Part shown: piece by piece, positions 20,946 through 51,612 of the stretch
Layout of the letters: the number at the start of each line of letters is the position of its first letter
Position numbering within the stretch: the first letter of the stretch is position 1
Assembly: GCA_963771885.1 (NCBI GenBank)
Contig: CAVYVF010000002.1
Coordinates: forward strand, 192,001 to 256,000
Reading direction: 5' to 3'
Source of the DNA: Candidatus Bathyarchaeota archaeon
GTDB lineage: Archaea > Thermoproteota > Bathyarchaeia > TCS64
DNA: 64,000 bases
The notes under the pieces: model-generated
Told to the model about the DNA's origin: nothing
The model's input: only the letters and a program-made list of their open reading frames with translations
Database searches by the model: none
Program-made: the position numbers and the translations under genes

Positions 20946-21117
20946 CCCTGGGTCACTTAGGGATAGTTTGAGGAATTATTGGTACGTTGTAGCGTGTTTC
21001 GCGCGCGCATGCGCTTTAATCGTCTGAATTTTTAGGCTCACATCGAGTATAATAAAGGGCATGTGCTAAAACACACTGAAGTGGATAAAACCCACTTTAT
21101 CACTGGAGTGAAGAGAC

Positions 21118-21327: not shown

Positions 21328-21396
21328 GTAATCTAATTTTTACGCATAAGAGGCAGCTAGATTTCGTTACTCAATTATCCTAACGTCGGTGTCACT

Positions 21397-21894: not shown

Positions 21895-22124
21895 GATTTT
21901 TCTTAGGGAAGCGTGTTATAAGAACTCCTTTCTTTTGCGCACAATTTTTGAAATTATTAAAGTAAGGGTTTATCTTTATGGATTTTCATAAAACTATGCT
22001 AAAGGAACGCCATACTCCCTTAGCCTCCGTAGTAGGGGCCGAAGAGGCCCCGAATACTCACGCCAACTATCACGAAACTGCAAGTAAATTGTTTAAAATC
22101 GGTTAGTTTGCCTTATGCGCGCGC

Positions 22125-22174
22125 ATGGCATACATTTAAAATTATTTTTTTAGGGTGGGCACTATTTTGGGGTG
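22125..22174 (-). repeat. About 50-bp imperfect repeat, copy 2
   Basis: ATGGCATACATTTAA...GGGCACTATTTTGGGGTG. Confidence 0.55.
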
Positions 22175-22276
22175 TTTTGGCGGGCGCAAATGATTAATCT
22201 CTTGAGAAATGGCTGACGTTGTGCGCACACACAAGGATCTGGGGAAGTTGAAATATTGATATTATTATGATTCATC

Positions 22277-22798
22277 CTATTTCTTCGAATTCTTTAGACG
22301 AACCTCTTTCACCTCATCAGGCAACTTTACCTCAATAAAACCCTCAAGCATCATACACACAATATCCTGAATCTGGGTTTCAGATCTCATCGGATAAATA
22401 ACATGAACAAGTTCTTCGATAAAAGAACCGCATAGATTTATGAGGAAATCTACGGATGTATCGCTCCAATGGTCTAAAACGTTGATGTGAACATTGAATC
22501 CCTCGCTTGTTCTCACAACCACTGCTCTTCTATCGGGCTTCTTCCCGAAACACTCTTCCAGTTTTCTAATCAGATCATCCCATTCCTCTTGGCGATAATA
22601 GTAGCTTACCTTTATTTCTGGAAACGTGAATTTCTGCTCTCTATCTAAATATTCTAGAGTATCGGTGAAGACTGTACCCATAAATGTCACTAATTGGTCG
22701 GGTGTGTCAAAGTTCTGGAACTTGTCCAGGTATTTCTCAATTCTGCCTCCTTTAGGCGGTGATGGTATTTCAATTGTCCTATGATCAAAGGGAGGCAT
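22277..22798 (-). CDS. Hypothetical protein with EELVH (zincin-like) motif
   Basis: 173-aa ORF containing FIEELVH. Confidence 0.55.
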   Translation of the reverse strand: MPPFDHRTIEIPSPPKGGRIEKYLDKFQNFDTPDQLVTFMGTVFTDTLEYLDREQKFTFPEIKVSYYYRQEEWDDLIRKLEECFGKKPDRRAVVVRTSEGFNVHINVLDHWSDTSVDFLINLCGSFIEELVHVIYPMRSETQIQDIVCMMLEGFIEVKLPDEVKEVRLKNSKK

Positions 22799-22996
22799 GT
22801 TGATGAGAAAGCGATGGTGGTTAAAGAACTGGGAGGCAACTCGCTAATTGGCGTGCGTAGCTAATACGGTTCTCTCTATTTACGCACGTGCAGTTGCATT
22901 CTCGATACTTGACTACTGCTGAGGAAAGCCAAAGTAAAGAAAACCGCAGACAACCACTTTAAAGCGAGCCGCACGCAGGGTTTCCAAGTTTAGCGC

Positions 22997-23896
22997 TTAA
23001 CAGATCTCTTCTAAGGATAACTTGGATACACTTACCACTGTATCCGCAGCCCCGTAGGAGATCAAGATATCGTTCCCGCGACGAATCGCGCCACAGCTGA
23101 ATACGACATTTGGAATGAACCCATTACATTCATAGTCCGTTTGTGGCTCGAAGATTGGCTCAAGAGATCTATACAATATCTTCTCAGGGTTGCCCTTCTC
23201 AAGCAATAGTGCGCCCAGTCTATAGACCCTGTTCTGGTCTACGCCGTGGTATATCTGCAACCACCCCTCATCAAGTTCAATCGGTGGCCCGGCTATTCCA
23301 ACTCTTAAGCAGTCCCAGCTGTTTTCCCTTGGAGTCATAACGATCTTCGAATTATTCCAGTTTTGCATATCATCTGAGTAGGCGATACATAGGTTGGGGT
23401 CTATTCTATGAAAAAGTACGGACTTTCCACCAATCTTTACTGGGAACAATGCACTGTTTTTGTTAGTGATATTTGGGAATGGGTATATCCTCTCTTCCCA
23501 ATCCCAATTTTTCGCCATTAGATCCCTGGACTTTATTGAGGTAATCCCGATCTGTGCCGTTTGCGCGTAGGCTGTATACGTCATATAACACCGATCCTCC
23601 ACTATTGTCACCCGAGGGTCCTCAACGCCCCTAATCTCTGAGGGATTTTTAGGTTCAAAAACTGGATAATCCAGCCGCTCATCAATGTGTTGGCCATCGA
23701 GAGAGGATGCATAACCCAGTCGGGAGACCATGTCATTCCCCATAGCTCTATATAAAAAGTGAACCCTGCCTCCGAGCTCGAACATCGCAGGGTTGAAGAC
23801 AAGCTTGGACTCCCAGCTATGTTCAGGGATCGGTTTCAGTATGGGATTGCCCTCGAAACGTGAAGCGACATAACGTTTAGTTTGATATTCCATCAA
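22997..23896 (-). CDS. GH130-family glycosidase/mannoside phosphorylase
   Basis: GNPIL, VFNPA, GVEDPRV, NKNSALFP, YHGV, NVVFSCG, YGAAD. Confidence 0.9.
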   Translation of the reverse strand: MMEYQTKRYVASRFEGNPILKPIPEHSWESKLVFNPAMFELGGRVHFLYRAMGNDMVSRLGYASSLDGQHIDERLDYPVFEPKNPSEIRGVEDPRVTIVEDRCYMTYTAYAQTAQIGITSIKSRDLMAKNWDWEERIYPFPNITNKNSALFPVKIGGKSVLFHRIDPNLCIAYSDDMQNWNNSKIVMTPRENSWDCLRVGIAGPPIELDEGWLQIYHGVDQNRVYRLGALLLEKGNPEKILYRSLEPIFEPQTDYECNGFIPNVVFSCGAIRRGNDILISYGAADTVVSVSKLSLEEIC

Positions 23897-24058
23897 GACT
23901 TACAGAACTCCTAATATGTATCCAGTTAATAAAACCCTGGGACAATTGGTTCTAACATGAATCATCGCTCTTATATAAATTGACTCAACGCACTTGTAGA
24001 CACTAGTTTTTGAAGCAAATAAAAAAGGTGTTAATACAAAGATGTATTAAAGTTACTT

Positions 24059-25663
24059 ATGGATAAAGCGAATACATACTTTAAAACCCTCTTCGACTTA
24101 CCGGTTTTAAACAGCACCGATTTAGAGCCTCCCACGATTTCTCAAGTCGAATCAGTCTCAAGACTGATTGATCTGCTGGTTACCCACGAAACAGGCGCGG
24201 TGATTGTGACAGAAGGCGAAAAACCCGTTGGCATAGTAACTGAAAAGGACATTGTTGAAAGGGTTCTAGGCCGCGGGAGAGACCTCGAAAGCACTCGGGT
24301 CGAAGAAATCATGTCCTCTCCCTTTGTATGTATAGAGTCTAATAAGTCGGTTAAAGAGGCCATTGAACTATTAAGGGAGAAAAATATCCAAAAACTAGGC
24401 GTAGTAGAAAAAGGGAAACTGATAGGTCTGACGACTGAGAGGAGGCTGCTTAACCTTGCACACGACACATACCTGGATGGAATCCAGGAAAGAGACGTAG
24501 ACGAAATCTATACCCCAAACGACAAACCCATCATTGCCTACCTAAGCACTTATCCTCCTCGCGAATGTGGAATCGCGACATTCACCTATGATTTAGTCGA
24601 CTCCATAAACCGCCAAGGCGCCCTATCTCCCCCCATGATTATCGCCATAAATGATGAGGGCGAATACTATGACTACCCCAACGAAGTCAAGTTACAGGTA
24701 GAAAGAGATGAGCGAGAGAGCTACAGAGCCGTGGCATCAAGGATCAACAACTCCGGCATCAATGCGGTGAATATTCAACACGAATATGGCCTGTTTGGCG
24801 GGTCCTGGGGAGATTACCTCCTGACATTCGCGGAAGAGTTGAAGAAGCCCCTAATCACAACCCTCCACACCATACTCCCGGAGCCTAACACGGATGCGGA
24901 GCGGGTTCTAAAAGAAATCATGGGATTTAGCGACAGGATAATAGTCTTGGCCAAAGCGGGATCCAAAATTTTAATCGAGCGCTACGGTGTCCCGACGGAA
25001 AAGATAAGATACATTCCACATGGCTGTCCAAATGTTCCCTTCATTAAAAGCAAAACACCCAAGATTGGTCTAGGGCTTAAGAATCGGTACATACTATCCA
25101 CTTTTGGACTCATCAGCAGTGGAAAGGGAATAGAGTACGCAATCAAAGCTATGCCCGAGATAATCTCGGCTGAACCACGAGTGCTCTACATCATAATCGG
25201 TGAGACGCATCCAGAAGTGAGGAAACATGAGGGCGAATCCTATCGACAATCATTATACGATTTGGTGGATTCTCTCGACATTGAACAGAATGTAAGATTT
25301 GTCAACCGTTTCCTAAATAAAATCGACCTGATCAGGTTTCTGCAGGCAACGGACACATATGTTCTACCCTATCCGAATAGGGACCAGATAAGCAGCGGTA
25401 CAATGCTCTACGCGCTATGTACCGGAAAAGCCATAGTAACAACCCCCTTTCTACACGCAGAGGAGGTTATAGATCAGGGAGCTGCCCTACGATGCGAGTT
25501 TAAAGACCCTCACTCAATCGCTGAATGCGTAAACACCCTCATCAAAGATGACGCAATGAAGGCGAAGTTTGAGAGAAGGGCATATGAAACTAGCCGCGAA
25601 ATGATCTGGCCTAGCGTCGCCATGAAATACATCAACGAATTCTACAAGGACCTCGGAATGTGA
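24059..25663 (+). CDS. CBS-pair domain fused to a GT4 glycosyltransferase
   Basis: PVGIVTEKDI CBS pair, then STYPPRECGIATFT, QHEYGLFGG, IPHG, GKGIE, SSGT. Confidence 0.88.
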   Translation: MDKANTYFKTLFDLPVLNSTDLEPPTISQVESVSRLIDLLVTHETGAVIVTEGEKPVGIVTEKDIVERVLGRGRDLESTRVEEIMSSPFVCIESNKSVKEAIELLREKNIQKLGVVEKGKLIGLTTERRLLNLAHDTYLDGIQERDVDEIYTPNDKPIIAYLSTYPPRECGIATFTYDLVDSINRQGALSPPMIIAINDEGEYYDYPNEVKLQVERDERESYRAVASRINNSGINAVNIQHEYGLFGGSWGDYLLTFAEELKKPLITTLHTILPEPNTDAERVLKEIMGFSDRIIVLAKAGSKILIERYGVPTEKIRYIPHGCPNVPFIKSKTPKIGLGLKNRYILSTFGLISSGKGIEYAIKAMPEIISAEPRVLYIIIGETHPEVRKHEGESYRQSLYDLVDSLDIEQNVRFVNRFLNKIDLIRFLQATDTYVLPYPNRDQISSGTMLYALCTGKAIVTTPFLHAEEVIDQGAALRCEFKDPHSIAECVNTLIKDDAMKAKFERRAYETSREMIWPSVAMKYINEFYKDLGM

Positions 25664-25667
25664 CAAA

Positions 25668-26702
25668 ATTTGGACTGAACTAAACAGACTGAGTGGACTC
25701 CGACTCTTCACAGATGAAATGGGCATACTTCAACACTCAATGTTCGGCGTAATCGACAGAAGACATGGATACACGACAGATGACAACGCCAGGGCCCTCG
25801 TGGCCTCAGTGCGCTTTCATAATAGATTCGGCGGAGAGGAAGCCACTCACCTTGCCAAGAGATACCTCGAATTTCTCCTCTACATGCACATAAATGGGGG
25901 CGGACTTCACAACCGTGTCCAATACGATAAGCAGTATCTGGACGAGGTAGGAACCGAAGACAGCATCGGTCAAGCACTTTGGGCAACGGGCAGCGCATTG
26001 AATTCAAGTCTGCCCCTATCTCTGAAACAGTTATCGAAGTGGCTATTTAATGAAAGCCTACCCATTGCCCGGGGTTTCACCTCCCCGAGGGCGAAGGCTT
26101 TCACCCTTCTCGGTTTATGTGAATACTCACGGGCTTACCCCGACGATGAAAATCTACTAAAGGACTTGAACCAATTTTCGGATTTTCTGGTTCAGAAATA
26201 TTTCGATGCAATGTCGCCCGAGTGGCAGTGGTTCGAGCCATACATAACATATGCGAACGCCAGAATACCCCAAGCACTTATCGAATCTTATCAAATCCTG
26301 AAAAACCCGCGGCATCTTCAAGTAGCAAAAAAAACCCTCGACTTTCTAATCGACTTGCAGTTTGAAAACGGGATCTTCATTCCAATAGGAACAGATGGAT
26401 GGTATCACAAAGGGAAACAAAAAGCGGTTTATGATCAACAACCCATAGAATCTGCCTGCATGACCGAAGCTGCCTTTTTAGCTGCAGAGATCTTTGACGA
26501 CGAAAAATATGGACAGAGAGGGCACGAAGCTTTCCTATGGTTTAAGGGAAAAAACATATCTCGGCTGGCACTAGTTGATACAAATGACTACACCTGTTAC
26601 GATGGCTTGACTCCTAAGGGTGTGAATCAAAATAAAGGTGCTGAGTCATTGATCTCATATCTCTTAGCTGAATTATCTCTGCCCAGTTCTAAGGGCCCTT
26701 AA
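25668..26702 (+). CDS. Glycosidase-like alpha/alpha-barrel protein, the usual partner of this GT4 type; start uncertain
   Basis: TDEMGILQHS, GYTTDDNARAL, WFE.YITY.NA, DQQPIE, CYDGL, NQNKGAES; frame open upstream of the ATG at 25719. Confidence 0.8.
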   Translation: MWTELNRLSGLRLFTDEMGILQHSMFGVIDRRHGYTTDDNARALVASVRFHNRFGGEEATHLAKRYLEFLLYMHINGGGLHNRVQYDKQYLDEVGTEDSIGQALWATGSALNSSLPLSLKQLSKWLFNESLPIARGFTSPRAKAFTLLGLCEYSRAYPDDENLLKDLNQFSDFLVQKYFDAMSPEWQWFEPYITYANARIPQALIESYQILKNPRHLQVAKKTLDFLIDLQFENGIFIPIGTDGWYHKGKQKAVYDQQPIESACMTEAAFLAAEIFDDEKYGQRGHEAFLWFKGKNISRLALVDTNDYTCYDGLTPKGVNQNKGAESLISYLLAELSLPSSKGP

Positions 26703-26780
26703 TGAGTGCGCACATAAGGCCTATTTATATGCACATTTTTATCTCAGATTTCCGCGGAAATGAGGAGTCTTAAAAAGATT

Positions 26781-27431
26781 TTATTGCGTGGCCTGCGTCG
26801 TCGAGTTTCCTCTAAGGAAAAGCGCCAACACAAACCCAGCCACAAACCCGCCAATATGAGCCATATAGGCTACGCCGCCCGTTTCCGCCGAATTGGCGAT
26901 TGAGCCGATGCCGCTGAAGAACTGAAGAACGATCCAGAGCCCTATCACAATCAAGGCAGGTACCTGAGTCACAACTCGACCCTGCAACACCCTCACCTTT
27001 CCCTGAGGGAACAACAAGACATACGCGCCAAGCACCCCCGCTATCGCCCCTGAAGCCCCCAGATTCGGGATATCTGACCCTAGACTAAACGCTAGCTGAG
27101 CAAACGTCGCCCCCAATCCGCAGATCAGATAGAAGACTGTGAACTTGACGCTTCCGAAGCGGTCTTCCACATTGTCGCCGAAGATCCATAGGTAGAGCAT
27201 GTTTCCCCCGAGGTGAACCCACCCCGCGTGCATGAACATTGATGTGAGGAGCGTCATTGAATCGCCGATAGGGTCGGCTAGGAAGCGGCTGGGGATGAAG
27301 GCCCACTTAATGATGAAGGCGTCTCCCCCACTCAGTTCAACGAAGAAAAATAGGACGTTCAGGGCGATTAATGCATATGTAACGAGTGGAACGGTTTTAC
27401 GGGCGCTGTCATCGTCGCCGATAGGCATCAT
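26781..27431 (-). CDS. Rhomboid intramembrane protease
   Basis: SMFMHAGWVHLGGNM, GASGA, AHIGG. Confidence 0.93.
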   Translation of the reverse strand: MMPIGDDDSARKTVPLVTYALIALNVLFFFVELSGGDAFIIKWAFIPSRFLADPIGDSMTLLTSMFMHAGWVHLGGNMLYLWIFGDNVEDRFGSVKFTVFYLICGLGATFAQLAFSLGSDIPNLGASGAIAGVLGAYVLLFPQGKVRVLQGRVVTQVPALIVIGLWIVLQFFSGIGSIANSAETGGVAYMAHIGGFVAGFVLALFLRGNSTTQATQ

Positions 27432-27699
27432 AGAGAATCAATTGTTTGTTTGTAAGCTTAGTTAATAGAGGTTCTTTCCTTCTAGCGCATAAAGTAATTG
27501 CAGCCTCTGTATGGTGATAAAGCGCGCCTCCCGGTACTCGGTGGACACGCGCATTATTTTGGGGGCCAGGGTCTGGATCAGGTCTAGGGCTTGGCATTGG
27601 ATCCGGGGTTGGATTGGGGTTAGGATCTGGGGTCGGGTTGGGCGTGGGGTCGGGTGTATTCGGATTAGGGTTAGGATTTGGTTTCAGATCTGGACACAT
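27409..27699 (-). CDS. Possible Pro/Asn/Asp-rich low-complexity peptide
   Basis: (PN/PD/PT)n encoded by degenerate hexamers at about 27560-27685; purine-rich SD-like sequence upstream. Confidence 0.4.
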   Translation of the reverse strand: MCPDLKPNPNPNPNTPDPTPNPTPDPNPNPTPDPMPSPRPDPDPGPQNNARVHRVPGGALYHHTEAAITLCARRKEPLLTKLTNKQLILYDAYRRR

Positions 27700-28113
27700 A
27701 TCTTATCCTTCCCTATACTAACTTGTTCAAAAACATGGGTGCGCGTGCGGAGTATGGCGTTCCATTAGCAATAATTTATGAAAACCCATGAAGGCAAACC
27801 CTTACCATCGCGAGCGAATGAAGTGGAAAAACGGCTCGCGTCGTTTCTCATGAAAGCGCCCCTAGCTTTCGATTGAATGAGTGACCAGCTCTGTGCATAT
27901 CCTTTAGGGATGCTGAGATGCGCGCGCGGTCTCGGACCAGGACTTTATTATTGTCGAATGGCTCTGGAGGCGCATGGAGGGCGAATAGATTTTACTTCCA
28001 AGCTTGGGCAGGGAACAACCTTCATAATAATAATACCCATTGAATAAATCGCCCTGTGCACAAGTAACACTAGTTTATATCGTTTCATTCCAATAGATCA
28101 TATAGCGGATTAA

Positions 28114-29034
28114 ATGTATCAAAATAGTATGATTTCTGTCGTTGTACCCGCTTATAATGAAGAGTTACTCATAGAGCAAACTTTAGAATCGATACCAGAT
28201 TACATCGATAAAATATATGCAGTTGACGATGGATCATATGATGACACCTATAATATAATTAAAAAAACATCGATTAAAGATAATAGAATAATTCCATTAA
28301 AACATGAGATAAATAAAGGGGTTGGTGCAGCGATTATTACCGGGTATAAAAAAAGTGTAGATGATAACGTTGACGTAGCTGTAGTCATGGCGGGAGATTA
28401 TCAGATGGATCAAACTCAAATACCCAAATTAATCGAACCAATTATAGAAGGAAATGCGGATTATACCAAGGGAAATAGATTAACGAATAATACCGATATG
28501 AAAGGTATGAGTATATTTAGACGGTTTGGAAACGAGTTATTATCTATACTCACAAAAATCTCGTCAGGTTATTATGATATTATGGATCCTCAAAACGGCT
28601 ATGCGGCGATTTCTAGACAGGCACTTACTACCATCGAGTTAGATGAGATCTATCCAAAATATGGATACTGTAACGATATTTTAGTAAAGTTAAACGTATT
28701 TGATCTTAGGGTGAAGGATGTCCCTATACCGGCTCGATACGGTTCAGAAAAATCAAAGATAAAATATGGGAGATATATAATGAATGTCTCCTGGTTGCTT
28801 TTCGGAAATTTTTTGTACAGACTAAAGATGAAGTACATCTATCAGGATCTAAGTCTGATTCCTTTTCTTTTTATATTTGGTGCTTTATTAATGCCTCTTG
28901 GAATGTTCTCTATGTTTTATAATAACTTCACATTGTTTTCAAATGCGTTTTCTTTACCTATTATTATCCTAAGTATACTATTTGTTTTAATTGCATTAAT
29001 GCTTGATATTAAAAATAGCAGAAATATTCACTAG
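28114..29034 (+). CDS. GT2 glycosyltransferase (DPM1-like) with C-terminal TM helices
   Basis: VVVPAYNEE, VDDGS, NKGVGAA, DPQNGY; markedly AT-rich. Confidence 0.9.
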   Translation: MYQNSMISVVVPAYNEELLIEQTLESIPDYIDKIYAVDDGSYDDTYNIIKKTSIKDNRIIPLKHEINKGVGAAIITGYKKSVDDNVDVAVVMAGDYQMDQTQIPKLIEPIIEGNADYTKGNRLTNNTDMKGMSIFRRFGNELLSILTKISSGYYDIMDPQNGYAAISRQALTTIELDEIYPKYGYCNDILVKLNVFDLRVKDVPIPARYGSEKSKIKYGRYIMNVSWLLFGNFLYRLKMKYIYQDLSLIPFLFIFGALLMPLGMFSMFYNNFTLFSNAFSLPIIILSILFVLIALMLDIKNSRNIH

Positions 29035-29061
29035 CACATGCAAATCGCCTCGTGTGAAATT

Positions 29062-29583
29062 TTATATCGGTACCTCACTTACAGTAAAGACCAATTCAGC
29101 GAGTTTGGCAGCCTCTCTGGTGAAGTCCTCCTCACCCAGATCGATCCAATTTGGACCGGTAATTACTCCCCTTAGATAAATGGTCGTGACAAACCTAGAC
29201 CCCCTCTCCACAACCTTACTCCGCAGCTTATCAACGGCTTTGGGGTTTGTTTCGTCGGCACCAACTAATCCCAAGATAACTCGTTTTCCGCGGAGATCGA
29301 TCTGTTCAAGGAATTCAATCATGGATGACGGAGGTTTCCCCTTCGATACGGCTGTTAGTAATATTATAGGGTCAAATTCAACAATAGCCGCGTTGGCTTT
29401 TGTTAGTTCTTCTTCTGCATGCGAATAGCGTCTGATCCTTAGCTTGTCTCTCCAGTCTCCGGGCTCAACTATTTTTCTGCTTTCGGCTTTGATTGTTGGT
29501 AGAACGATCTCCGCTATCTTGGCTGTTCTGCCTGTTTTGCTATAATAGAAGATGAGGGGCTGTAGAATTATGGTGCTCGACAA
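29062..29583 (-). CDS. Flavodoxin-like protein
   Basis: IFYYSKTGRTAKIA phosphate-binding loop. Confidence 0.7.
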   Translation of the reverse strand: MSSTIILQPLIFYYSKTGRTAKIAEIVLPTIKAESRKIVEPGDWRDKLRIRRYSHAEEELTKANAAIVEFDPIILLTAVSKGKPPSSMIEFLEQIDLRGKRVILGLVGADETNPKAVDKLRSKVVERGSRFVTTIYLRGVITGPNWIDLGEEDFTREAAKLAELVFTVSEVPI

Positions 29584-29730
29584 AGTTTAATCCCATAAAT
29601 TATCTTTGAACCTTTTTTAATAAATGTTAACCCATTTTACGCGGGAATTTTTTCGTATTTTCACATAAATTCCTGTGTGCGATTAGCCAGCTCAATTTCC
29701 TTCATTTATTAGCAGCGGTATTTCGCGCGC

Positions 29731-29884
29731 GACGAAGTAGAGGGAAGAGGAAAGAAAATCAAGGGACAGATCCGTGAAGAGATAGGTAAGATTTCGGATA
29801 ATAAAACGGAACCTCAAAGGAAAGATCGAGCAAGTCGAGGGAAAAGTGCAAGTCGAGAAAATCAAGAGAAGGGTCAAAGAATAG
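29731..29884 (+). pseudogene. CsbD-family stress protein remnant
   Basis: DEVEGRGKKIKGQIREEIGKISDNKTE, frameshift, LKGKIEQVEGKVQ...*; no start codon; begins right after CGCGCGC. Confidence 0.6.
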
Positions 29885-29990
29885 AACCCTTCAATCGCCA
29901 TTCCGCTCGATTAGCATGCGCGCGCGCTCACAAATAGATAAAGGTAAAACAGAGGAGAACGAGATCATGCGCCTAAATGAGATATGGGTG

Positions 29991-30356
29991 CTAGAAGCTT
30001 ATTACGGCGTCAGCCTCTAGGAGAAGATCATTGAGTGTTGCCGCACCTACGATACCAGCGTCGCTCACAAAGCTACCCCTAGGAAGATTAAACAGCATAC
30101 AGCTCTGCTCACAAACCATAAGCTTCACACCGGCTTTAACCGCTTGATCCATGACCTCCTTCAGGCTCGGAAATCCCCCGATCTTTATCTTCTCGGCCTC
30201 ACCGGTTTTTACCACTGTAATTCCCTTTATTATGAAGTAGATTGTGGCTTCTATGCTCATGGCCGCGGCTGTTGAACCGAGGATGAAAGGTGCGTAAAGT
30301 CTCTCGGGTGTGTCTATTCCGCTTGTTTGGACGTAGAGTATCTTCTTCTTTACCAT
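29991..30356 (-). CDS. DsrE/F-like protein
   Basis: PERLYAPF, GVKLMVCEQS, IVGAATL. Confidence 0.85.
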   Translation of the reverse strand: MVKKKILYVQTSGIDTPERLYAPFILGSTAAAMSIEATIYFIIKGITVVKTGEAEKIKIGGFPSLKEVMDQAVKAGVKLMVCEQSCMLFNLPRGSFVSDAGIVGAATLNDLLLEADAVISF

Positions 30357-41785: not shown

Positions 41786-42058
41786 GTGCCCCCAAGAGAG
41801 GAACAGCGAAAACCGCACAGCATAGGCACCGTCATGCATGTCTCCAAGAGTACGGGTCAGCTCATCGTCAGAGCCAAGGAGGAGGCTAGCATAGGCGACT
41901 TCGTCTACGACTCAAAGCGCAAGCGCGTTGGCGTTGTCTTCGACTTCTTCGGTCCAGTCGACGGTCCTTACATCGCCGTCAAGCCGCATGGAGATCCCGC
42001 CGCTTTCGTTGGCGCCGAGCTCTATGTCGAGGAGAGACGTAGGGAAAGGCGACGCTAA
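41786..42058 (+). CDS. gar1: H/ACA RNP subunit Gar1/Naf1
   Basis: VGVVFDFFGPVDGPY. Confidence 0.85.
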   Translation: MPPREEQRKPHSIGTVMHVSKSTGQLIVRAKEEASIGDFVYDSKRKRVGVVFDFFGPVDGPYIAVKPHGDPAAFVGAELYVEERRRERRR

Positions 42059-43251
42059 CCCCGTAAGTAGTCTCGAATCTCGACGATTTTACCCCCCTTC
42101 AAGAATACTCTAGGTACACGTCTGGCTATGGCGCACGTGACCTCGTGGGGGATCGTTTCAAGCCATGTCGCCATCTCCTCGACGCTAGGAGCACATCCCC
42201 CACCGAAGAGAGTGACCTCGTCACCAATCTCAGCTGCCTCGGCGTCTGTCAGGTCTATCATACACTGGTCCATGCAGACGCGCCCCACTATCGGCACTCT
42301 GTTTCCCTTGAAGTCGACCCAGCCCCTATTTGACAGCGCCCTCCGGTACCCGTCGGCGTAGCCTATTGGGAGCGTGCCAATTATGCTCAGGCGCTTCGCT
42401 TTGTATATTATTCCGTAGCTAATCCCTGCTCCTTTGGCGACGGCTTTGACGTTTGAGAGCCGAGCCTTGAGCGCCATCGCAGGCTTGAGGTTCACTCTCT
42501 TAAGGTTCACGTCGGGACCAGGTTCATATCCGTAGAGCATAATGCCTGGTCGCACCATGTCGAGGGCGTACTCGGGAAGGTCTATGATTGCTGCGCTGTT
42601 TGAGACGTGTCTAATCGGCGGCTCGACGCCGAGCCTTCTCAGCTCAGTGAGGACCCATGTGAACAATTCGTATTGGTGGCGCGTGTAGGTCTTGTCTGCG
42701 GCATCGGAGACAGCGAAGTGTGTGAAGATGCCTTCAAGCTCTACGTTGGGGAGGGCGGCGATCTCGGCGATGGCGCGTATCGCCCCGCTGCTTGGCTGGA
42801 ATCCTAGGCGCCCCATCCCTGTGTCCACCTTGACGTGCGCTGTCGCGACCACGCCGAGCCTCCCCGCGGCTTCATTGAGCGCCTCTGCCTGCTGTGGCGT
42901 GTATACTGTCGCCGACACGTTATTCTCGATGAGCGTCTCGTAGTCGGCGTCGGGTGTGTAGCCCAAGTTCAGTATCGGCGCCTCGATACCGGCCTTCCTC
43001 AGCTCGAGTGCCTCGGTTAGCGCCGCGACGCCAAGCCTGTCGGCGCCGTTCTCGAGAAAAGTTTTCGAGGCTGTGACTGCTCCATGTCCGTAGGCATCCG
43101 CCTTCACCGCCGCGAGTATCTCAGCGCTGCTGTCGGCTAGCCTCCTGACCTCACGGATGTTGTTCGCGAGGGCGTCAAGGTCCACCTCCGTCCACGCAGG
43201 CCGTGGGATGGGCATCGCGTCCATAACGTGTAATCCATCGCATCTCCCCAA
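42055..43251 (-). CDS. alr: Alanine racemase, bacterial type
   Basis: AVKADAYGHG, HVKVDTGMGRLG, GISYG, GYADG, GRVCMDQ. Confidence 0.95.
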   Translation of the reverse strand: MGRCDGLHVMDAMPIPRPAWTEVDLDALANNIREVRRLADSSAEILAAVKADAYGHGAVTASKTFLENGADRLGVAALTEALELRKAGIEAPILNLGYTPDADYETLIENNVSATVYTPQQAEALNEAAGRLGVVATAHVKVDTGMGRLGFQPSSGAIRAIAEIAALPNVELEGIFTHFAVSDAADKTYTRHQYELFTWVLTELRRLGVEPPIRHVSNSAAIIDLPEYALDMVRPGIMLYGYEPGPDVNLKRVNLKPAMALKARLSNVKAVAKGAGISYGIIYKAKRLSIIGTLPIGYADGYRRALSNRGWVDFKGNRVPIVGRVCMDQCMIDLTDAEAAEIGDEVTLFGGGCAPSVEEMATWLETIPHEVTCAIARRVPRVFLKGGKIVEIRDYLRG

Positions 43252-43302
43252 TATCGGTTGCCTTCCAGAATTGGTTTTAAGCTAAGGTGAGGATCGTGAT
43301 GC

Positions 43303-44007
43303 ATGGCCTCGGGCAGGATTCTAATAATCCAGAACGACCCCGTGGAGAACCTCGGCTTGTACGAGGCGTTTCTCAGGGAGAAAGCCGAGGTGGATGTAGC
43401 TCACGCCTACTCGATGAAGGTGGGTGAACGATTCCCCGGCACGGATGCTTACTCAGCGTTCATCATTGGTCCCACACCAATCTCAGCAAACGCGGTCGAG
43501 AAGCACCCCTTCCTTGTGTGCGAGTGGGAGTACTTGTCCCGTATTGTGGGGAGCAACAAGCCGGTGCTCGGAGTCTGCTGTGGCGGGCAGATTCTCGCGA
43601 GGCTCCTCGGCGGGGAGGTCGTGAGGAGCCCGAGCAAGGAGGTTGGGGGCTACACTGTGAAGCTGACAGACGCGGGTATTTCTGATCCGCTCTTCCGTGA
43701 CTTCCCTGTGGATGTGCCTGTTTTCCATTGGCATAGTGACATGTTCAAGGTCCCGCCGGGAGGTAAGCAAATTGCCCGCGGTGACCCGTGCCCCATACAG
43801 GCATATGCCTGGAGGAACATACGTGGTGTTCTCTTCCACCTAGAGATTAACCACCACGAGGCGGAGCGTTGGGCGTCCGCCTACCCCGAAGAGTTAGCAG
43901 CTGTGGGGAAAACGAGGGATCAAGTGCTCGAGGAGTGCCGTATGAGGGAAACCGAGATGAGTCGGCTCGCCGAGAAGCTCATCGACAACTTTCTTAATCT
44001 TACCTAA
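43303..44007 (+). CDS. Type 1 glutamine amidotransferase-like protein
   Basis: LGVCCGGQ, WHSD, FHLE. Confidence 0.88.
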   Translation: MASGRILIIQNDPVENLGLYEAFLREKAEVDVAHAYSMKVGERFPGTDAYSAFIIGPTPISANAVEKHPFLVCEWEYLSRIVGSNKPVLGVCCGGQILARLLGGEVVRSPSKEVGGYTVKLTDAGISDPLFRDFPVDVPVFHWHSDMFKVPPGGKQIARGDPCPIQAYAWRNIRGVLFHLEINHHEAERWASAYPEELAAVGKTRDQVLEECRMRETEMSRLAEKLIDNFLNLT

Positions 44008-44061
44008 CTGGTAAACCTCATCAACTCGAAGCACCAAATTTAGTCGGTTGGTGTTTCTAGC

Positions 44062-45195
44062 ATGAAGATAACTAAGGTCGAGATAATCCCCGTCAACTTG
44101 CCGAAGAAGAAGGTGCTCTCCCTCTCCCGCTACGGAAAGCTGGGTGAGGGGACGCCCTTCGAGTTCATCTTGACGCGCATCCATACGGACGAGGGCGTCA
44201 CCGGGGTCGGCGAGTGTCCGCCTCTCCCACCACTCAGCCCCGAAAACCAGGGAGTTGTCGCCGAGATGCTGAGGCGCTGGATCGTCCCCAACATCATAGG
44301 GATGGACCCCTTCGACCTCGAGGGCATCTGGGAGAAGATGGACTACTGGGCCCCCACGTACCCAATGGCGAAGGCAGCCATCGACATGGCCCTCTGGGAC
44401 ATCATGGGCAGGAGCCTGAACGTCCCAGTCTACAAGCTCCTCGGAGGGGGATCGAACCCCAAGAAGATACCGAACGCCGGACTTATTGGCATCGACACCC
44501 CAGCAAAGGTCGCCGCCGAGGGGAAGCGCCTCGTAAAAGAAGGCTACACGGCCATCAGGCTCAAGATAGGCCCGAAGAGGGACGCCACATGCGTAAAGGC
44601 GATTCGTGAAGCCATAGGCGAAGATGTAGTACTTCGCGTCGACTGTAACCAGGGCTACGCAGCCCACGAAGCGATCAAAATGATCAGGGAGATAGAGCAG
44701 TGGGGCGTCGAGCTCGTGGAGCAGCCGACCGTCTGGTGGGACTTTGCCTCGATCGCTAAGGTCGCGGGTTCAGTCGACACGCCCATAATGCCACATGAAT
44801 CTCTGTTCTCTATGGCCGATGTGAAGACCTTAATCGATATGGGTGCGATTGGCGTTTTAGGGCTGAAGACCTACCGACCAGCCGGGGGAATAACCAACGT
44901 TAAGCGTATACTCGACATGGCTCGGGTGATGAACATCCCGACACTCATGCACGACGACCTTGAGATGGGAGTCAGTCTTTCCGCTGCATCCCATATAATC
45001 GCGGGCTGCGGGAGGGCCATCACACAGACTTGTGAGCTCAGCGGGTTCCCAGAGTGGATCAACGAGGATGTCATCAAGGAACCCGTGAAGTTGGAGGGCG
45101 GTTACATCGCGCCCCCGAAAGGGCCGGGGCTCGGCTTCGAGCTCAACGAGGCGGTCGTCAAGAAGAACACGACGGGTATAATAGTCGTTCAGTAA
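44062..45195 (+). CDS. Enolase-superfamily dipeptide epimerase/MLE-like protein
   Basis: AKAAIDMALWD, RLK, RVDCNQG, VEQP, HES, GPGLG. Confidence 0.85.
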   Translation: MKITKVEIIPVNLPKKKVLSLSRYGKLGEGTPFEFILTRIHTDEGVTGVGECPPLPPLSPENQGVVAEMLRRWIVPNIIGMDPFDLEGIWEKMDYWAPTYPMAKAAIDMALWDIMGRSLNVPVYKLLGGGSNPKKIPNAGLIGIDTPAKVAAEGKRLVKEGYTAIRLKIGPKRDATCVKAIREAIGEDVVLRVDCNQGYAAHEAIKMIREIEQWGVELVEQPTVWWDFASIAKVAGSVDTPIMPHESLFSMADVKTLIDMGAIGVLGLKTYRPAGGITNVKRILDMARVMNIPTLMHDDLEMGVSLSAASHIIAGCGRAITQTCELSGFPEWINEDVIKEPVKLEGGYIAPPKGPGLGFELNEAVVKKNTTGIIVVQ

Positions 45196-45260
45196 TTCCT
45201 CAGATATTCTCTTAGGGATTTCACGAGGCGCATGAATACTAACAATTTATATTCTCGCCT

Positions 45261-46871
45261 TTGCGCACATGTGCAAGGAGTCCAACGACAGTATTGTCCC
45301 TGGAGCCTTGTCCCAGAGTTCTGGTCGGCGGCACACTAATTGATGGTACGGGCCGCCAGCCAATCACCGACAGCATCGTTGTGATGCAGGGCGACTACAT
45401 ATTAGCCGCAGGAAAAAAGGGTAAGATCGAGGTACCGAAGGGGGCCGAGGTCTACGACGTCACCGGCATGACTGTAGTGCCGGGTTTCATCGATAGCCAC
45501 TGCCACTTCTACGGCATGGGTCTCTCGATGATACGGGACGTCCAGCTCCGCGACACACCCTCCCTCGAAGGCGCTTTGACCCGCCTCAAGGAGAAGGCTA
45601 AGGCAGCCAAGAAGGGGGAGTGGATAATCGGCAAGGGCTGGGACGAGTCCAAGTGGCCCGAGAACAGGTACCCCACCAAGCAGGATCTCGACGCCGTCTG
45701 TAAGACAAACCCCATGATGATCGTCAGGATATGCGGCCACATGTTAACCCTCAATACCGCCGCGCTGAAGATGGGGGGAATCACTGGAAAGACCCCGCAG
45801 CCTGAGGGCGGACATATCGACATGGGTGATGACAGAGAGCCCACGGGCATACTCAGGGATTGCAGGCACCTAATAGAGACCTGCATCCCACAGGCGAGTG
45901 AGGAGCAGGCAGTCGAGGGTTTGAAGGTCGCGTCCGAATACGCGCTCAGCCTCGGATGTACGAGCGTAGGCGACGCCGGGTTGGGGGCGGACGCCCTCAA
46001 GGCGTATCAGACAGCGCTCGCAAAGGGCATGCTGAAGGTCCGCGCTTACCTCTTCCTCAACGAGACGGTCCAGAAGCAGAGCTATGAGGTCGGAATCAGG
46101 ACAGGTTTTGGCAACGATATGATAAAGGTCGGGCCAACGAAACTGTTAATGGACGGTAGCCTCGGCGCCCGCACCGCAGCGCTCTTTGAGCCGTACACTG
46201 ACGAGCCCTCTACGAAGGGCTTACTGATAATGCCGCCCGAGGCCCTCGACGAGAAGGCGAAGGCTGCCAACGAGCACGGCAACCAGCTAGCAATACACGC
46301 TATAGGCGACTACGCTATCGAGTGCGTCATAAACAGCATACAGGCTGCCCTCAAAGAGAAGCCTCGAAAGGATCACCGCCACAGGATCGAGCACTGCGAG
46401 ATACTCACCGCGGGGCAGATCGAGAGGATCAAGCAGCTTGGGATAATCCCCGCCGTCCAACCGAACTTCGTCGGCGAGTGGGCGGGACCGGGCAGCATGT
46501 ACGAGCAGCGCCTCGGGGCAAATCGCAACAAGCTGAACAACCCTTACAGGATCATGCTCGACGAGGGTATAATCTTCGCGTTCGGCAGCGACGGTATGCC
46601 CTTCCACCCGATCTACGGTATCTGGAGCGCTGTAAACCACGGCATCAAGGAGGCCAGGATAAAGCTGGTCGAGGCGATAAAGTGCTACACTCTTAACGGC
46701 GCCTATGCGAGCTTCGACGAGAAGCTGAAGGGGAGCATCGAGGTCGGAAAGCTGGCCGACATCGCTGTCGTGGATAGAGACCTTACTAAGATCAAGGCGG
46801 AGGACATACGGGATGCCAAGGTCTACATGACCCTTGTCGGTGGGAAGATCCTCTACCACAAGGGGCTTTAA
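45261..46871 (+). CDS. YtcJ-like amidohydrolase (start probably the TTG near 45294)
   Basis: PGFIDSHCH, DGSLGARTA, HAIGD, RIEH, FGSD. Confidence 0.9.
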   Translation: MRTCARSPTTVLSLEPCPRVLVGGTLIDGTGRQPITDSIVVMQGDYILAAGKKGKIEVPKGAEVYDVTGMTVVPGFIDSHCHFYGMGLSMIRDVQLRDTPSLEGALTRLKEKAKAAKKGEWIIGKGWDESKWPENRYPTKQDLDAVCKTNPMMIVRICGHMLTLNTAALKMGGITGKTPQPEGGHIDMGDDREPTGILRDCRHLIETCIPQASEEQAVEGLKVASEYALSLGCTSVGDAGLGADALKAYQTALAKGMLKVRAYLFLNETVQKQSYEVGIRTGFGNDMIKVGPTKLLMDGSLGARTAALFEPYTDEPSTKGLLIMPPEALDEKAKAANEHGNQLAIHAIGDYAIECVINSIQAALKEKPRKDHRHRIEHCEILTAGQIERIKQLGIIPAVQPNFVGEWAGPGSMYEQRLGANRNKLNNPYRIMLDEGIIFAFGSDGMPFHPIYGIWSAVNHGIKEARIKLVEAIKCYTLNGAYASFDEKLKGSIEVGKLADIAVVDRDLTKIKAEDIRDAKVYMTLVGGKILYHKGL

Positions 46872-47079: not shown

Positions 47080-47526
47080 TTAATCCGCCGTTTCGATGGT
47101 CTCAAGCTCCTTAATGTAATCAGGCTCAAGCCCATGCTCCTTAGCGCCACTGACCATTAAGCCGAGATACCTCTTCGTAGGCTTAAAGGGACCCTTTGGA
47201 TTCGTCGTTCTGTACGTGGCCGCCTTTACTGCTTTTCCTGTCTCGTCGACGACGTAGATGGTTTGCCTGAAGTAAATACCGTCGGGCACGCCCTCGATGG
47301 AGTCGAGGTGGAGGAGCTCATCGTTATCCACTTCATAGAGTACGCCCCTGACAAGCTTGGCCGCCGCCGGCTCAATACCCGTGACGCCTCCCTTGTAGGT
47401 TCGACTCATGAAGTTGAATTGGACCTCCCAGTTAGGGAGGAACGCCTTACCCTTATAGACCGCCTTGGGGCAATGCCTCTGAAGCGTCGCCGAGTCCAAG
47501 AAGGAACCATATGAGAAGTACAGCAT
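47080..47526 (-). CDS. Gamma-glutamylcyclotransferase-family protein
   Basis: YFSYGS, VRGVLY, LDSIEG, GAKEHGL. Confidence 0.88.
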   Translation of the reverse strand: MLYFSYGSFLDSATLQRHCPKAVYKGKAFLPNWEVQFNFMSRTYKGGVTGIEPAAAKLVRGVLYEVDNDELLHLDSIEGVPDGIYFRQTIYVVDETGKAVKAATYRTTNPKGPFKPTKRYLGLMVSGAKEHGLEPDYIKELETIETAD

Positions 47527-47575
47527 GGGGCTGATTGGGGATTAATGGTTAAAAGAGTTACCTCGTTTCCGACAA

Positions 47576-48167
47576 TCACTTGGCGCGCTTGTAGTCCTTC
47601 TCGCCCAAGATGTGGCGGTGGTACATCCAGTTCACGTGCCCTGGCGTTAGCTCGACCCTCAACAGGTCACCCTCCGTGGATGAAGCCCTGACGCGTTCCA
47701 TCTCCGCCACAGTCCTGTACCACTCATTAAGCCGTCTGCCCTTATCATCCATCTCTTCGGCGTGGCAGCTGAAATGAGTGTAGCCGTTCTCGTAGCAGTA
47801 GATGTGCACGAGTGTGAAGAGGCTCCCGCCTACCCCCTTGCCCTCGATGAGGCTCGCCATATCGTCGCCGTAGAAGCCACCGGACAGCTCTGCGTCCTCG
47901 TAGCCGAAGAAGAAGGCTAGAGGCTCCCTTCCCTGTCTGACCATCATGAGGAAGAAGCCCTCCTTCTCACCCCTCCTGATCATGTCCCAGACCGTGTACC
48001 TGAGCTCCTCCCTGAACATCTGGGAGTCGATCCTAAGAACCTCGTCTATGAGCACCCTGTCCAGTGTAACATGGACGCTGATCTTTACAGGACTCCCAAG
48101 AAGGGTGCTAAGTCTCTCCTCTACTCTGTCTCGCTGCTTCCTCGAAAAAGGGTGGCTCCTCGCCCAT
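47576..48167 (-). CDS. GNAT-like hypothetical protein, frameshift in a T run near 48147
   Basis: FYGDDMAS..EGKGVGGSL; ATG at 48167 joins the ORF if one T is removed. Confidence 0.6.
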
Positions 48168-48174
48168 GGGGGAG

Positions 48175-49174
48175 CTACTTGATGCCGTACCGCTTAAGAC
48201 CTGCGCCGACAACTTCGCGAATCATGTCGTCGAAGTTCCAGCCGCCTCGCAGCCACATGAAGGGGTAGAAGCTGAAGTCGTCCACCGACGGGTCGGCGTC
48301 GATGCCGGGGAGCGGGTTGATCTCAAGGAAGTATAGTTCGCCGCGGCTGTTGTACCTGAAGTCGAGGCGTCCCCAGTCGTAGCACTGGAGTATCTTAACT
48401 GCCTTAAGGGTGGTCTCTTCGACCTCCCTTCTTGAGCTTGGCGGGTAGCTTGGCAGGGCAGAGGTAGTTGGCTGAGGTATCGTAGATGGTCTTCGCCTTC
48501 TGGCCGAGGACGGTGCCGAGCTCGGGGGCGAACTTGCTGAAATCCATCTCAAAGATGGGAAGGATGCGCGGTTTTTCCTCTCCTATGAAGTTGCCGACTA
48601 TGCCGACGCTGAATTCGCGCCCATCGATGAACTCTTCGGCGAGTATACCCTGCTTGTATACGCCGAGCATCTCCTTGAGTTTCCTGCGCAGCTGCTTCTC
48701 GTCGTGTACCACGTTGTCGATGTTGATGCCGATGCTGCTGCCCTCGTGGCTTGGCTTAAGGATGAGTGGGTACCTGAGCTTGGCGGGAACTGCGTCGTCT
48801 TTCTCGTAGAGGACGGTGAAAGGCGCGGTCTTGACGCCATGCCACTCAAGCACCTTCTTCGTCGTGGGTTTATCGAGGCAGATGGCGGTCGCCATGATGC
48901 CAGCCCCCGTGTATGGAATGCCGAGCATCTCACAGAAGGCGGGGACCTGGCTCTCCCTACTCTCGCCACGGATGCCTTCAGCCCTGTTGAGCACGAGATC
49001 CGGCCTCTCACGCCTGAGTGTCTCGAAGCAGGTCTCATCGGCCTCGATCTGGAGGTACTCCCAGCCGGCGGCCTCGATGGCGTGCTTCACGAGCTCAATT
49101 GTGTGGGGTGGCTCGTACTCGACCTGGAACTCGCCTTTGTCATGGCGAGTGTTACAACAAAAAGCTATCCTCAA
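48175..49174 (-). CDS. D-Ala-D-Ala ligase-like ATP-grasp enzyme, frameshift near 48430
   Basis: GIPYTG, DKPTTK, KPSHEGSSIGI, EEFIDGREF, RLDFR, LEINPLPG. Confidence 0.88.
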
Positions 49175-49184
49175 CTTATTGTGG

Positions 49185-50547
49185 CTAGGGGACGTCCGAG
49201 AGGACCTCCTTGTAGATGCTCAGGGTCTGATTCTTGATCTTCTCTGGCATCGTGATCGCATTCGTGGATGCCGAAGAAAAGTCTTGTAGAGCTCGTCTTC
49301 GCGGCCCTTAGCCTCTTCGAGGAACCTCTGCTCGAACTCCTGAGTCAGGGGGCTCCTGTCCCCGTTCTTCCATGCTAGGTAGAAGGCGAATAGCTGCTCG
49401 TCGCGGCCCCTGCCCGTAAGGGCGTAGGTGTTGACGTCGCTTCCGCCGAAGAGGCTGAAGTACTCCTTACAGTCCTCCGTGAGCATGTTCCTGTTGAGCC
49501 CGACGGTCTTGGGGTCGAAGCCGCACGCCTTGATGAGTAGGTACATCTTGCTGCAGACGCTGCAGCTCATGCACCAGCGTGTGTCGCGGCCAGCTTCGGT
49601 CTCGACGAAGCAGCTCATGTGGTACTTGGCGACTTCGGGGTATCTCTTGTAGAGGGCGTAGACGACTGCGATGTCGTTGAGCGGCTCTATGACGCTCATC
49701 GTGCGGACGCCGCCGTTTGTGAGGAGGCGGGTGATGAGGTCGATGTTAACTGGTCCACTTGTGGCTCTGGTCGAAGGCGGGGTAGCAGATGTAGCCCTCG
49801 CTGTCGTAGTAGTACTCGCTGCAGCTCTGCTCGTTGCCGAAGAGTATGTACTTCGCTCTGGAACGTGTTGGCGATAGGGAGGAGCATCATCGCGTACTGG
49901 GTGTTCTGGAGTCCCCAGCCGATCTCCGTCTTGCCAACGCCGAGGCGTATGCCGTCGCGCAGGTGGCCTGTCGTGTGGATGATCTTGTTCAGCTTCACCT
50001 TGAACTCGTTCTCGAACTCTTTGGCGAGCACGTCCTTGTGCTTCTCCTCGTATAGGAGGAGGGGCTCGACGACGTACGCTGCCTGCGGGTTGAGTCCTAG
50101 TTCGCGGCACACCGCCCACGTGAGTAGGCTGTCCTTGCCGAAGCTGAGGGCGACGACGCTGCTGTCGTCCCTGCTCGGCTGCTTATAGGTCGGGAACTTT
50201 ACGTCGTAGTCGTTGAACTTGATCTTCAGGTTCATGAACTCCTTGATGAGCTCCGACGTGCGTGTCCCGTCTACGTCTGCGCAGCTTGGCAGGTCCATCA
50301 GTAGGTTCTGAAAGAACTGCGTCTGGAAGAAGGGGGCTGAGGTGTTGTACCTGAGCTCGCTCTTCCGGAGGGTCAGGGGGAGGTGGACGGTCTCAGCGTA
50401 GACGAGGTTGTCGAAGAGAACGTCCTTCGCCTCCTGGGGATAATTCTTCCAGAAGCCGTTGGGGTACTTTACGACATACCGCGACCCGCGGAGATTAATT
50501 TCATAACCCGTCTCGATCTGTCTCGCTTCAATGGAGAGGCTAGACAC
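49185..50547 (-). CDS. PP-loop ATPase, MurL (peptide L-to-D-Glu epimerase)-like, several frameshifts
   Basis: LSFGKDSLL PP-loop; MSC...RWCMSCSVC Cys motif. Confidence 0.55.
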
Positions 50548-50640
50548 TATACATATACCTGCGTGGACTTTCTATCCGGAGACGATAACTCATTAATGCT
50601 ACTTATTATTGCTTACTATTAGGTTAGACCCAGATCTTGA

Positions 50641-51612
50641 CTGCAATGTTGCAAGACGGAATTAATCAAGCATGGGATCGGCGACACGATATTTACACAT
50701 TCCCGCAATCTCGAACAGTTGCTTGGATACAGCAATATTTACCTGAAATTTGAGGGCGGCAACCCGACTGGGACGATGAAGGACCGCGCGTCCTACGCCT
50801 GTCTCAGGCTGGCTAAGAGGAAGGGTTACGGGGAGGTCGTCATAGCCTCATGCGGTAACTTCGGCGCGAGCTATCGTCAGCACTATCACGATTCTTCGGC
50901 GTCAAGGTGCACGTCTACATTCCCGAGAAGTACCACACGCCCCGCATAGCATCCATGGAGAAGCTGGGCGGGATCATACACAGGGCTCCCGGCACCTATG
51001 AGGACGTTGTCGCCCTCTCCAGTGAGGAGGCGGCGAAGCGTGGATGGTACAACGGGAACCCCGGTACACCCGAGAACAGGAAGGTATCCATCGAGGCATA
51101 CGCTACGATCTCCTACGAGATCGCAAAAAGGCTAGGGGACGCACCTGACGTGGTCGCTGTCCCAACAGGCAACGGCACGACCATCGCTGGAATCAACCAC
51201 GGCTTCCAGGTCCTCCTAAGGAGAAGGAAAGACAAAGAAAGCACCCGCATTAATTGCTGCTAGTACAACGGGTGGAAACCCCGTAGTCTCCTGTTTCCTC
51301 GAAGGAGAGAGGATGATCAGTGACTTGAAGCCGGACAGCATCGACGAGACCAATGTAAACGAGCCCCTCGTCAGCTGGATTAGCCTTGATGGGCAGGACG
51401 CCCTCGACGCGGTCTGGGAGAGCAAGGGCTGGGCTGTACATATCGCCGACGAGGAGATGATCCGGTACTCGGAGATCCTTCTTCGCGAGGAGGGTCTCTC
51501 GGTGTTGCCCGCTTCCTGTTCATCCGTCGCCGCCCTCCCCCTCTACATCAAGGAGAGAAAGCTGAGGAAGGGCCTTGACCTCGTTGCTTTACTCACGGCG
51601 AGGAACTTCTGA
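50641..51612 (+). CDS. Fold-type II PLP enzyme (threonine synthase-like), two frameshifts, start uncertain
   Basis: LKFEGGNPTGTMKDR, ASCGNFG, PTGNGT, EEGL.V.PAS. Confidence 0.8.

Follow-up and report, generated by a model that had tools for sequence, protein, structure and literature searches.

A conserved cluster of a MurL-like enzyme, a Ddl-like ligase, a GNAT and a PLP enzyme in Bathyarchaeia and Asgard archaea

In reviews, MurL is the first ATP-consuming peptide epimerase and is linked to peptidoglycan. A large remote branch of MurL is found in wall-less archaea, usually beside an amide-forming enzyme; what does it do there? The question is raised by a locus at 47080..51612 of a 64,000-nucleotide stretch from a Candidatus Bathyarchaeota archaeon (assembly GCA_963771885.1, contig CAVYVF010000002.1, positions 192,001 to 256,000). 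This whole stretch is called the window below; the host genome is 2.46 Mb and 92% complete. The locus encodes a MurL-like PP-loop protein, a Ddl-like protein (Ddl, the ligase forming D-Ala-D-Ala), a GNAT-family protein and a pyridoxal phosphate (PLP) enzyme. The cluster is a real, conserved and uncharacterised pathway, a variant of the ligate-then-adenylate kind. The chances are about even that it is a four-enzyme module for biosynthesis of a small N-acyl dipeptide with a non-standard amino acid. If true, this would mean a new archaeal metabolite, a function for the PRK06381 family and possibly a new racemase mechanism. No description of the cluster was found in the part of the literature covered; subscription journals and supplements were outside the search.

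Gene content and linkage of the cluster

The MurL-like gene (49185..50547, minus strand) encodes an adenylating (PP-loop) enzyme of predicted QueC fold, with 452 aa in intact orthologues. It is followed on the same strand by genes for the Ddl-like ATP-grasp ligase (48175..49174; 332 aa) and the GNAT-family acetyltransferase (47576..48167; ~197 aa). On the plus strand, 50637..51612 encodes a PLP enzyme of fold type II (323 aa) that belongs to the PRK06381 family. These four genes form the core. The fourth minus-strand gene (47080..47526) encodes a gamma-glutamylcyclotransferase-like protein (GGCT; AIG2/GGACT, 148 aa), which is accessory and confined to a single genus. The minus-strand genes are tightly spaced, with gaps of 10 bp (MurL-like/ligase), 7 bp (ligase/GNAT) and 49 bp (GNAT/GGCT). 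Between the MurL-like and PLP genes lies an AT-rich divergent intergenic region of 89 bp (50548..50636, no strand); it is strongly conserved across the genus and probably holds back-to-back promoters. A preliminary description of the stretch had already reported four tightly spaced minus-strand genes and a divergent PLP gene; they are present, and their coordinates are now fixed.

In a six-frame reading, frameshifts break three of these genes. Single extra bases are located near 48126, 48429, 49257, 49282, 49752, 49857, 50587, 50660 and 50874; the MurL-like gene has four such insertions and the ligase gene has one, at 48429. Each of the nine is missing from contigs of two or three of four other runs, and relatives at 82-95% identity likewise do not have them. 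The genes are thus real and the frameshifts, which the preliminary description had marked for correction, are assembly errors, because neither the other-run contigs nor the relatives contain the extra bases. Another break, near 51216-51223, is visible only against relatives. Protein analyses of the four core enzymes were performed on intact orthologues from locus L020. RNA-library contigs overlap portions of the cluster, and one spans the MurL-like/ligase junction; these are small shares and are not used as evidence of transcription.

Linkage was examined in the best 80 of 176 genome loci (Bathyarchaeia, Asgard archaea and others), and rates are given for loci with enough flanking sequence. 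The ligase gene is directly downstream of the MurL-like gene in 75/75 loci; in the remaining five the sequence stops with that gene. A PLP gene is found in 73/74 loci (six others are cut short), and in the sole exception, L113, a PLP orthologue is found ~100 kb away. The GNAT gene is present in 66 of the 72 informative loci and lost in six (eight others are cut short); in three loci (L073-L075) it is fused to the ligase gene. As to orientation, 37 loci have a divergent PLP gene, 29 a convergent one and seven a co-oriented one; in L236 and L237 all four core genes are on one strand. The conserved unit is the PLP enzyme (PRK06381 type), the MurL-like protein, the Ddl-like ligase and the GNAT. 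The linkage, whose conservation had been named as a point to check, is kept. The PLP gene had been described as a divergent neighbour; it is divergent in the window, but it is a core member rather than a mere neighbour.

The wider family has a patchy distribution. It is found in 15/301 genomes of the archaeon's own phylum and in 25/201 Asgard-phylum genomes (about an eighth). Of the Asgard-phylum genomes with the MurL-like gene, 22 were examined for alanine racemase (see below), and the full cluster was inspected in five (L082, L109, L235-L237). In the Heimdallarchaeota-titled L109 (10988-13259), genes for a beta-lactamase-family serine hydrolase and an OSBS/NAAAR-like enolase lie between the GNAT and PLP genes. 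An apparent MurL-ligase fusion in L235 (803 aa) extends across a stretch of N and was discarded as artefactual. A PLP orthologue is missing from two genomes that have only a stand-alone MurL-like gene. At L032/L257 (G024:C3:18933-20435), an intact PLP gene lies beside a MurL-like fragment that has decayed (two stops), and the ligase is missing; this is one apparent loss of the cluster. Five records with bacterial titles (L059, L061, L081, L089, L111) hold Bathyarchaeia-like copies of the cluster and should not be taken as bacterial occurrences; the L081 genome is from the same phylum sample as the window genome (G000).

The core enzymes and the exchange of parts

The MurL-like protein has 417 homologues. 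The best 120 of these are all labelled 'hypothetical' and come from Bathyarchaeota, Thor-, Hod-, Promethe- and Aigarchaeota; clustering at 50% gives an additional 318 homologue representatives. The gene is present in 17/17 other genomes of the genus, where the N-terminal half of the protein is conserved at 81-100%, compared with 39-80% for the GNAT. Its motifs are SFGKDS (135-140), GNE (237-239), Cys312 and W324-C-x-x-C-x-x-C331. Cys312 and the three cysteines of WCxxCxxC are invariant in 57 orthologues, and by analogy with QueC we take them to be a probable Zn site.

Pfam has no match for the MurL-like protein, its two frameshifted pieces or the GNAT piece, and NCBIfam has none for these pieces. 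For the intact orthologue P0001 the sole NCBIfam match is MurL (NF041275), at E 8.4e-6 and with 24.5 bits, the cut-off being 700. This model is matched by 49 of the 63 tested family members at E<=0.01; QueC models are not among the matches of the 63 at that threshold. The nearest Atlas clusters are MurL (score 0.97), and a PDB sequence search gave TtuA alone (E 0.03). The predicted structure (pLDDT, a per-residue confidence, 93.9) best matches QueC (Z 14.6, rmsd 3.0 A, 189 residues), followed by Cap9(-CdnD) (Z 14.3); Foldseek gives QueC and QatC, both with E 7e-4. The N-terminal 120 residues are left unplaced by the fold searches, which barely probed them. A predicted complex of the MurL-like protein and the ligase scores 0.05, which speaks neither for nor against binding.

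MurL references were proteins encoded beside Mur ligases in Actinomycetota-phylum genomes (matches in 9/251; seven aligned). Identity to these is 14-17%, but the PP-loop, NE238-239, Q260, S284 (S-x-x-x-P), SC311-312 and WCxxCxxC are common to both. Together with the QueC-like predicted fold, these motifs indicate a remote MurL homologue that belongs to neither the MurL nor the QueC family and that probably acts in the manner of a MurL/QueC carboxyl-adenylating enzyme. The protein had been called reminiscent of MurL, and the model match, the Atlas clusters and the common motifs bear this out; the alternative raised at the time, a QueC or tRNA-modifying enzyme, is not what the family models identify. 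QueC, Cap9, QatC and YcfA have the same fold and the four-Cys site. However, QueC is a single domain of ~220 aa, whereas the MurL-like protein has an extra N-terminal domain and C-terminal helices and its gene is linked to those of amino-acid enzymes. The cluster resembles MurL systems in its peptide ligase neighbour and ligate-then-activate logic; it differs by an ATP-grasp rather than a Mur-type ligase, by the absence of a UDP-MurNAc pathway, and by the added PLP enzyme and GNAT. A stand-alone MurL-like paralogue (L028, G000:C23:402449-403832; 34-38%) is frameshifted in this genome too; most genomes of the genus have such a paralogue, with neither a ligase nor a PLP gene next to it.

The ligase has the ATP-grasp core and the ATP/Mg residues of Ddl. 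However, it scores below the Ddl cut-offs (180.9 vs 243 and 157.4 vs 245.65 bits). Ddl His63 and the omega-loop Tyr216 are replaced by Glu66 (LHG aligns to AEG) and Thr229 (AKY to AKT); Glu66 and Lys228 are invariant in 34 sequences. Alanine racemase is above cut-off in 13/37 carrier genomes, all in or near this Bathyarchaeia family, and in 0/22 Asgard-phylum MurL-like carriers; the metagenome-assembled genomes are incomplete. It is no requirement for the cluster. D-Ala-D-Ala is unlikely as a product because the His63 and Tyr216 positions are changed and no alanine racemase is above cut-off in the 22 Asgard-phylum carriers. All 40 ligases from the cluster fall into a single clade (support 1.0), to which KamA-linked ligases are the closest sisters; the omega loop reads GQrAKt in the cluster clade and YEvKW in the KamA-linked ligases. 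The pseudomurein ATP-grasp model gives 43.7 bits on the N-terminal piece of the ligase, against a cut-off of 500.

PF00583 matches 31/35 members of the GNAT family at E<=0.01 (best 5.3e-11), and the GxGxG of motif A is retained. The model misses the closest orthologue, P0003; the GNATs of the window genus are the most diverged. The genome also has three stand-alone GNAT paralogues (32-35%), at G000:C22:130981-131589, C23:469476-470024 and C23:470801-471370.

The PLP enzyme has a PLP-binding Lys48, an invariant Cys72 (in CGN), Arg102 and Tyr154. It is above the PRK06381 (NF004996) cut-off, with 356.8 vs 266 bits. The 'threonine synthase' label of that family is annotation only, and no paper naming PRK06381, PF26298, PF26299 or DUF6395 was found. 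The predicted fold is nearest to threonine synthases. A housekeeping threonine synthase was nevertheless rejected: the enzyme is below the ThrC (TIGR00260) cut-off (85.5 vs 167.1 bits), the Arg and Gln of the ThrC NPxR.EGQK motif are replaced, CGN stands in place of TGN (STGN), and a separate thrB-thrC operon (L140) encodes a ThrC scoring 281.9 bits. Cys72 is invariant in 42/42 PRK06381-type sequences and lies two residues ahead of a conserved Asn. In serine racemase, Ser84, two residues before Asn86, is the second base, and racemisation is lost without it (PMC6424897, PMC5998037). Cys72 is a catalytic candidate, placed by motif at the position of this second base. On a Bacteroidota plasmid (L225:7887-11501) a PRK06381-type gene (46%) is found with ppk2, an aspartoacylase-family gene and a 2-oxoglutarate-Fe(II) oxygenase gene; this is a third context for the PLP family.

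The other contexts come from the wider family. A second, separate MurL-like clade is present in 11 own-phylum genomes (FastTree support 0.993), and in 10/11 it is part of a run PLP - DUF1611/DgcN-like - MurL-like. The DUF1611 proteins score 125-176 bits against a DgcN cut-off of 480. Among the 17 own-phylum genomes with PRK06381 above cut-off, the second-clade MurL-like gene is present in 11 and missing in six. PRK06381 is also found in 10/251 genomes from the phylum of a Spirochaetales-titled genome. There, DUF1611 and the MurL-like gene are fused in 7/9 fetched loci, and genes for a creatininase-like hydrolase and a dipeptide-epimerase-like enolase come next; of the other two, one has a DUF1611 only and one is cut short. 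KxK and DxD, the dipeptide-epimerase signature, are present in all four aligned enolases. L115 combines a PLP enzyme of the second clade (B) with partners of the ligase/GNAT type (A), so that one PLP reaction seems to serve both architectures. Replacement of the ligase and GNAT by a DgcN-like acyltransferase suggests that the MurL-like enzyme is paired with an N-acylating partner.

Among 77 metagenome loci (from the best 80 of 456), a Ddl-like neighbour is found in 49, KamA with a Ddl-like ligase in 27, the PLP gene in seven and none of these in 27; the last are short or stand-alone. KamA and the PLP gene are never found together. Eight KamA proteins were checked against NCBIfam, and 8/8 are above a KamA-family cut-off. 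Since the cluster ligases are sister to the KamA-linked ligases, the PLP gene appears to occupy the place of an amino-acid isomerase. All three forms belong to one family tree, with their parts exchanged. In L141-L144 the MurL-like gene has a divergent Ddl-like ligase in 3/4 and a downstream ThiF/MoeB-family adenylyltransferase in 3/4. No match was found in plasmids for the MurL-like protein of the second type.

Proposed pathway and its alternatives

In the proposed pathway, the PLP enzyme would be the source of an unusual monomer. Its likeliest reaction is racemisation or some other change to an amino acid, in which Lys48 and Cys72 would serve as a pair of opposing bases. The Ddl-like ligase, judged by its family, would couple this monomer to another amino acid, turning ATP into ADP, and the GNAT would cap an amine using acetyl-CoA. 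The MurL-like enzyme would then use ATP, releasing AMP, to adenylate the carboxyl at the free C-terminus; the residue there would be either inverted, as by MurL, or amidated, as by QueC-fold enzymes. The product would be small and soluble. The analysis establishes what the genes are, their folds and conserved residues, their linkage and the exchange of parts; substrates, product, activities and the order of steps are proposals. In general form, an isomerase (KamA or PLP) would be followed by an amide-forming N-acylation (ligase and GNAT, or DUF1611) and then by the MurL-like step. MurL itself acts on an N-acyl peptide, changing its C-terminal residue from L to D while ATP goes to AMP (PMC8788868, PMC5808125). 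The part swaps and the invariant Cys72 are specific and cheap handles for assays.

A stronger version is tentative and rather doubtful. It holds that two groups of archaea that lack peptidoglycan, Bathyarchaeia and Asgard, produce a dedicated N-acetyl dipeptide with a D-amino acid, for which they would employ a new PLP racemase with Lys and Cys as its two bases and a MurL-type epimerase driven by ATP. The cluster would then be one form of a family with exchangeable modules (PLP or KamA; Ddl-like and GNAT, or DUF1611; MurL-like) that extends across archaea and some bacteria.

Several observations weigh against the biosynthetic module. The 80 loci include many close relatives, and the counts are a measure of conservation rather than of independent events. 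Some MurL-like genes stand alone, with neither ligase nor PLP gene beside them (L028-L034, L125-L127), and PRK06381 genes can also stand alone (the 6/17 genomes without a MurL-like gene). The cluster neighbours include no conserved transporter, regulator or precursor peptide. The identity to true MurL is only 14-17%, the NF041275 score is far below its cut-off, and the nearest solved folds are QueC, Cap9 and QatC, enzymes which form amides or nitriles and do not epimerise. Cys72 was matched to serine racemase Ser84 by motif position, not by superposition, and we know of no Cys-type fold-II racemase.

Comparable sets of enzymes are known. The N-acetylglutaminylglutamine amide (NAGGN) osmolyte pathway uses a GNAT, an ATP-grasp enzyme and an adenylating amidase, and the D-cycloserine pathway uses an acetyltransferase, a fold-II PLP enzyme, a racemase and an ATP-grasp enzyme; the families are different and both are analogies only. 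The DgcN-DgcA D-glutamate pathway (PMC12363236) has N-acylation followed by a change of stereochemistry, as is proposed here. A DgcN-like gene replaces the ligase and GNAT in the sister architecture, but none was found at the window locus.

This pathway is also the model for catabolic salvage, which is unlikely here. Scavenged D-amino acids or D-peptides (e.g. peptidoglycan debris) would be tagged and irreversibly inverted to L at the expense of ATP, and the PLP enzyme would deaminate a product. The DgcN-like gene of the sister architecture fits this, as do the fusion, creatininase-like hydrolase and epimerase-like enolase of 7/9 spirochaete-phylum loci and the cluster in L109, which encloses the OSBS/NAAAR-like enolase and a D-peptidase-like serine hydrolase. 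However, characterised MurL works only from L to D, the KamA version looks biosynthetic, a conserved transporter is absent, and the window enolase has neither DxD nor the first catalytic Lys and is confined to the genus.

Modification of a macromolecule is quite unlikely. The module would amino-acylate the N-terminus or a side chain of a protein, as Cap9/QatC, RimK-type ligases and KamA-EF-P do. The fold similarity to Cap9-CdnD and QatC and the KamA partners in the wider family are consistent with this, and so is the unusual conservation of the MurL-like protein in the genus. On the other hand, the ligase is Ddl-like and falls in a small-molecule clade, and no conserved small target gene was found among clustered neighbours of >=100 aa.

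It is very unlikely that the ligase makes a gamma-glutamyl peptide or cofactor tail which GGCT then recycles, the reading nearest to that of the preliminary description. An ATP-grasp/GGCT pair acts in protection and release in butirosin biosynthesis; 13 loci have GGCT next to the cluster, the genus has a class I glutamine amidotransferase close by, and four loci have a gamma-glutamyltranspeptidase within ~4 kb. Against this, GGCT was not found in 67/80 loci, and it has its own TATA-like site and two stand-alone paralogues.

A wall-like role, in which the cluster would be left over from the synthesis of peptidoglycan or pseudomurein peptides or analogous to it, has hardly any chance and is already largely refuted: MurL and Ddl are peptidoglycan enzymes and alanine racemase is present in this Bathyarchaeia family, but the sole PF08245 (Mur-fold) match in the 92% complete genome is FolC, MurD2 queries have no match there, the pseudomurein model is far below its cut-off, and none of the 22 Asgard-phylum carriers has an alanine racemase above cut-off. 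The preliminary description had seen no Mur ligase in the window, and this holds genome-wide.

Neighbours confined to the genus

GGCT is above the cut-offs of PF06094 (40.5 vs 22.8 bits) and PF13772 (72.7 vs 27 bits). It lies beside the cluster in 13/80 loci, all of this genus, and is not found in the others, including all Asgard loci. By eye, a TATA-like TTTTAA/TTTAT is present ~24-30 nt upstream of GGCT in the window and in 13/13 relatives. The two stand-alone GGCT paralogues are at C22:243116 and C22:270014. GGCT is accessory and outside the core; its earlier placement as an operon member, and the idea that it recycles what the cluster makes, do not stand against the separate TATA-like element, the restriction to one genus and the paralogues.

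Window positions 42055-46871 encode an alanine racemase (above cut-off), a class I glutamine amidotransferase, an enolase-superfamily protein and an amidohydrolase 3. This block adjoins the cluster in most of the genus. It was set aside as part of the pathway: the adjacency is confined to the genus and missing at L023, L024 and L027, and the enolase has no dipeptide-epimerase motifs, with R-L-K in place of KxK, His at a metal position, no DxD and the first catalytic Lys missing. Up to four alanine-racemase genes above the TIGR00492 cut-off are found per genome (G013, G016, G012, G024 and others of family f1); PMC12363236 describes alr as believed to occur in bacteria only.

Elsewhere in the window, the stretches 2001-12000 and 18001-30000 are low in GC (0.38-0.49 vs ~0.57). 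The open reading frame at 5339-6613 may encode a protein like methylaspartate ammonia-lyase, and those at 8283-9743 and 10373-11845 may encode proteins like aromatic amino-acid decarboxylases. A second glutamine amidotransferase-like open reading frame is located at 7347-8057.

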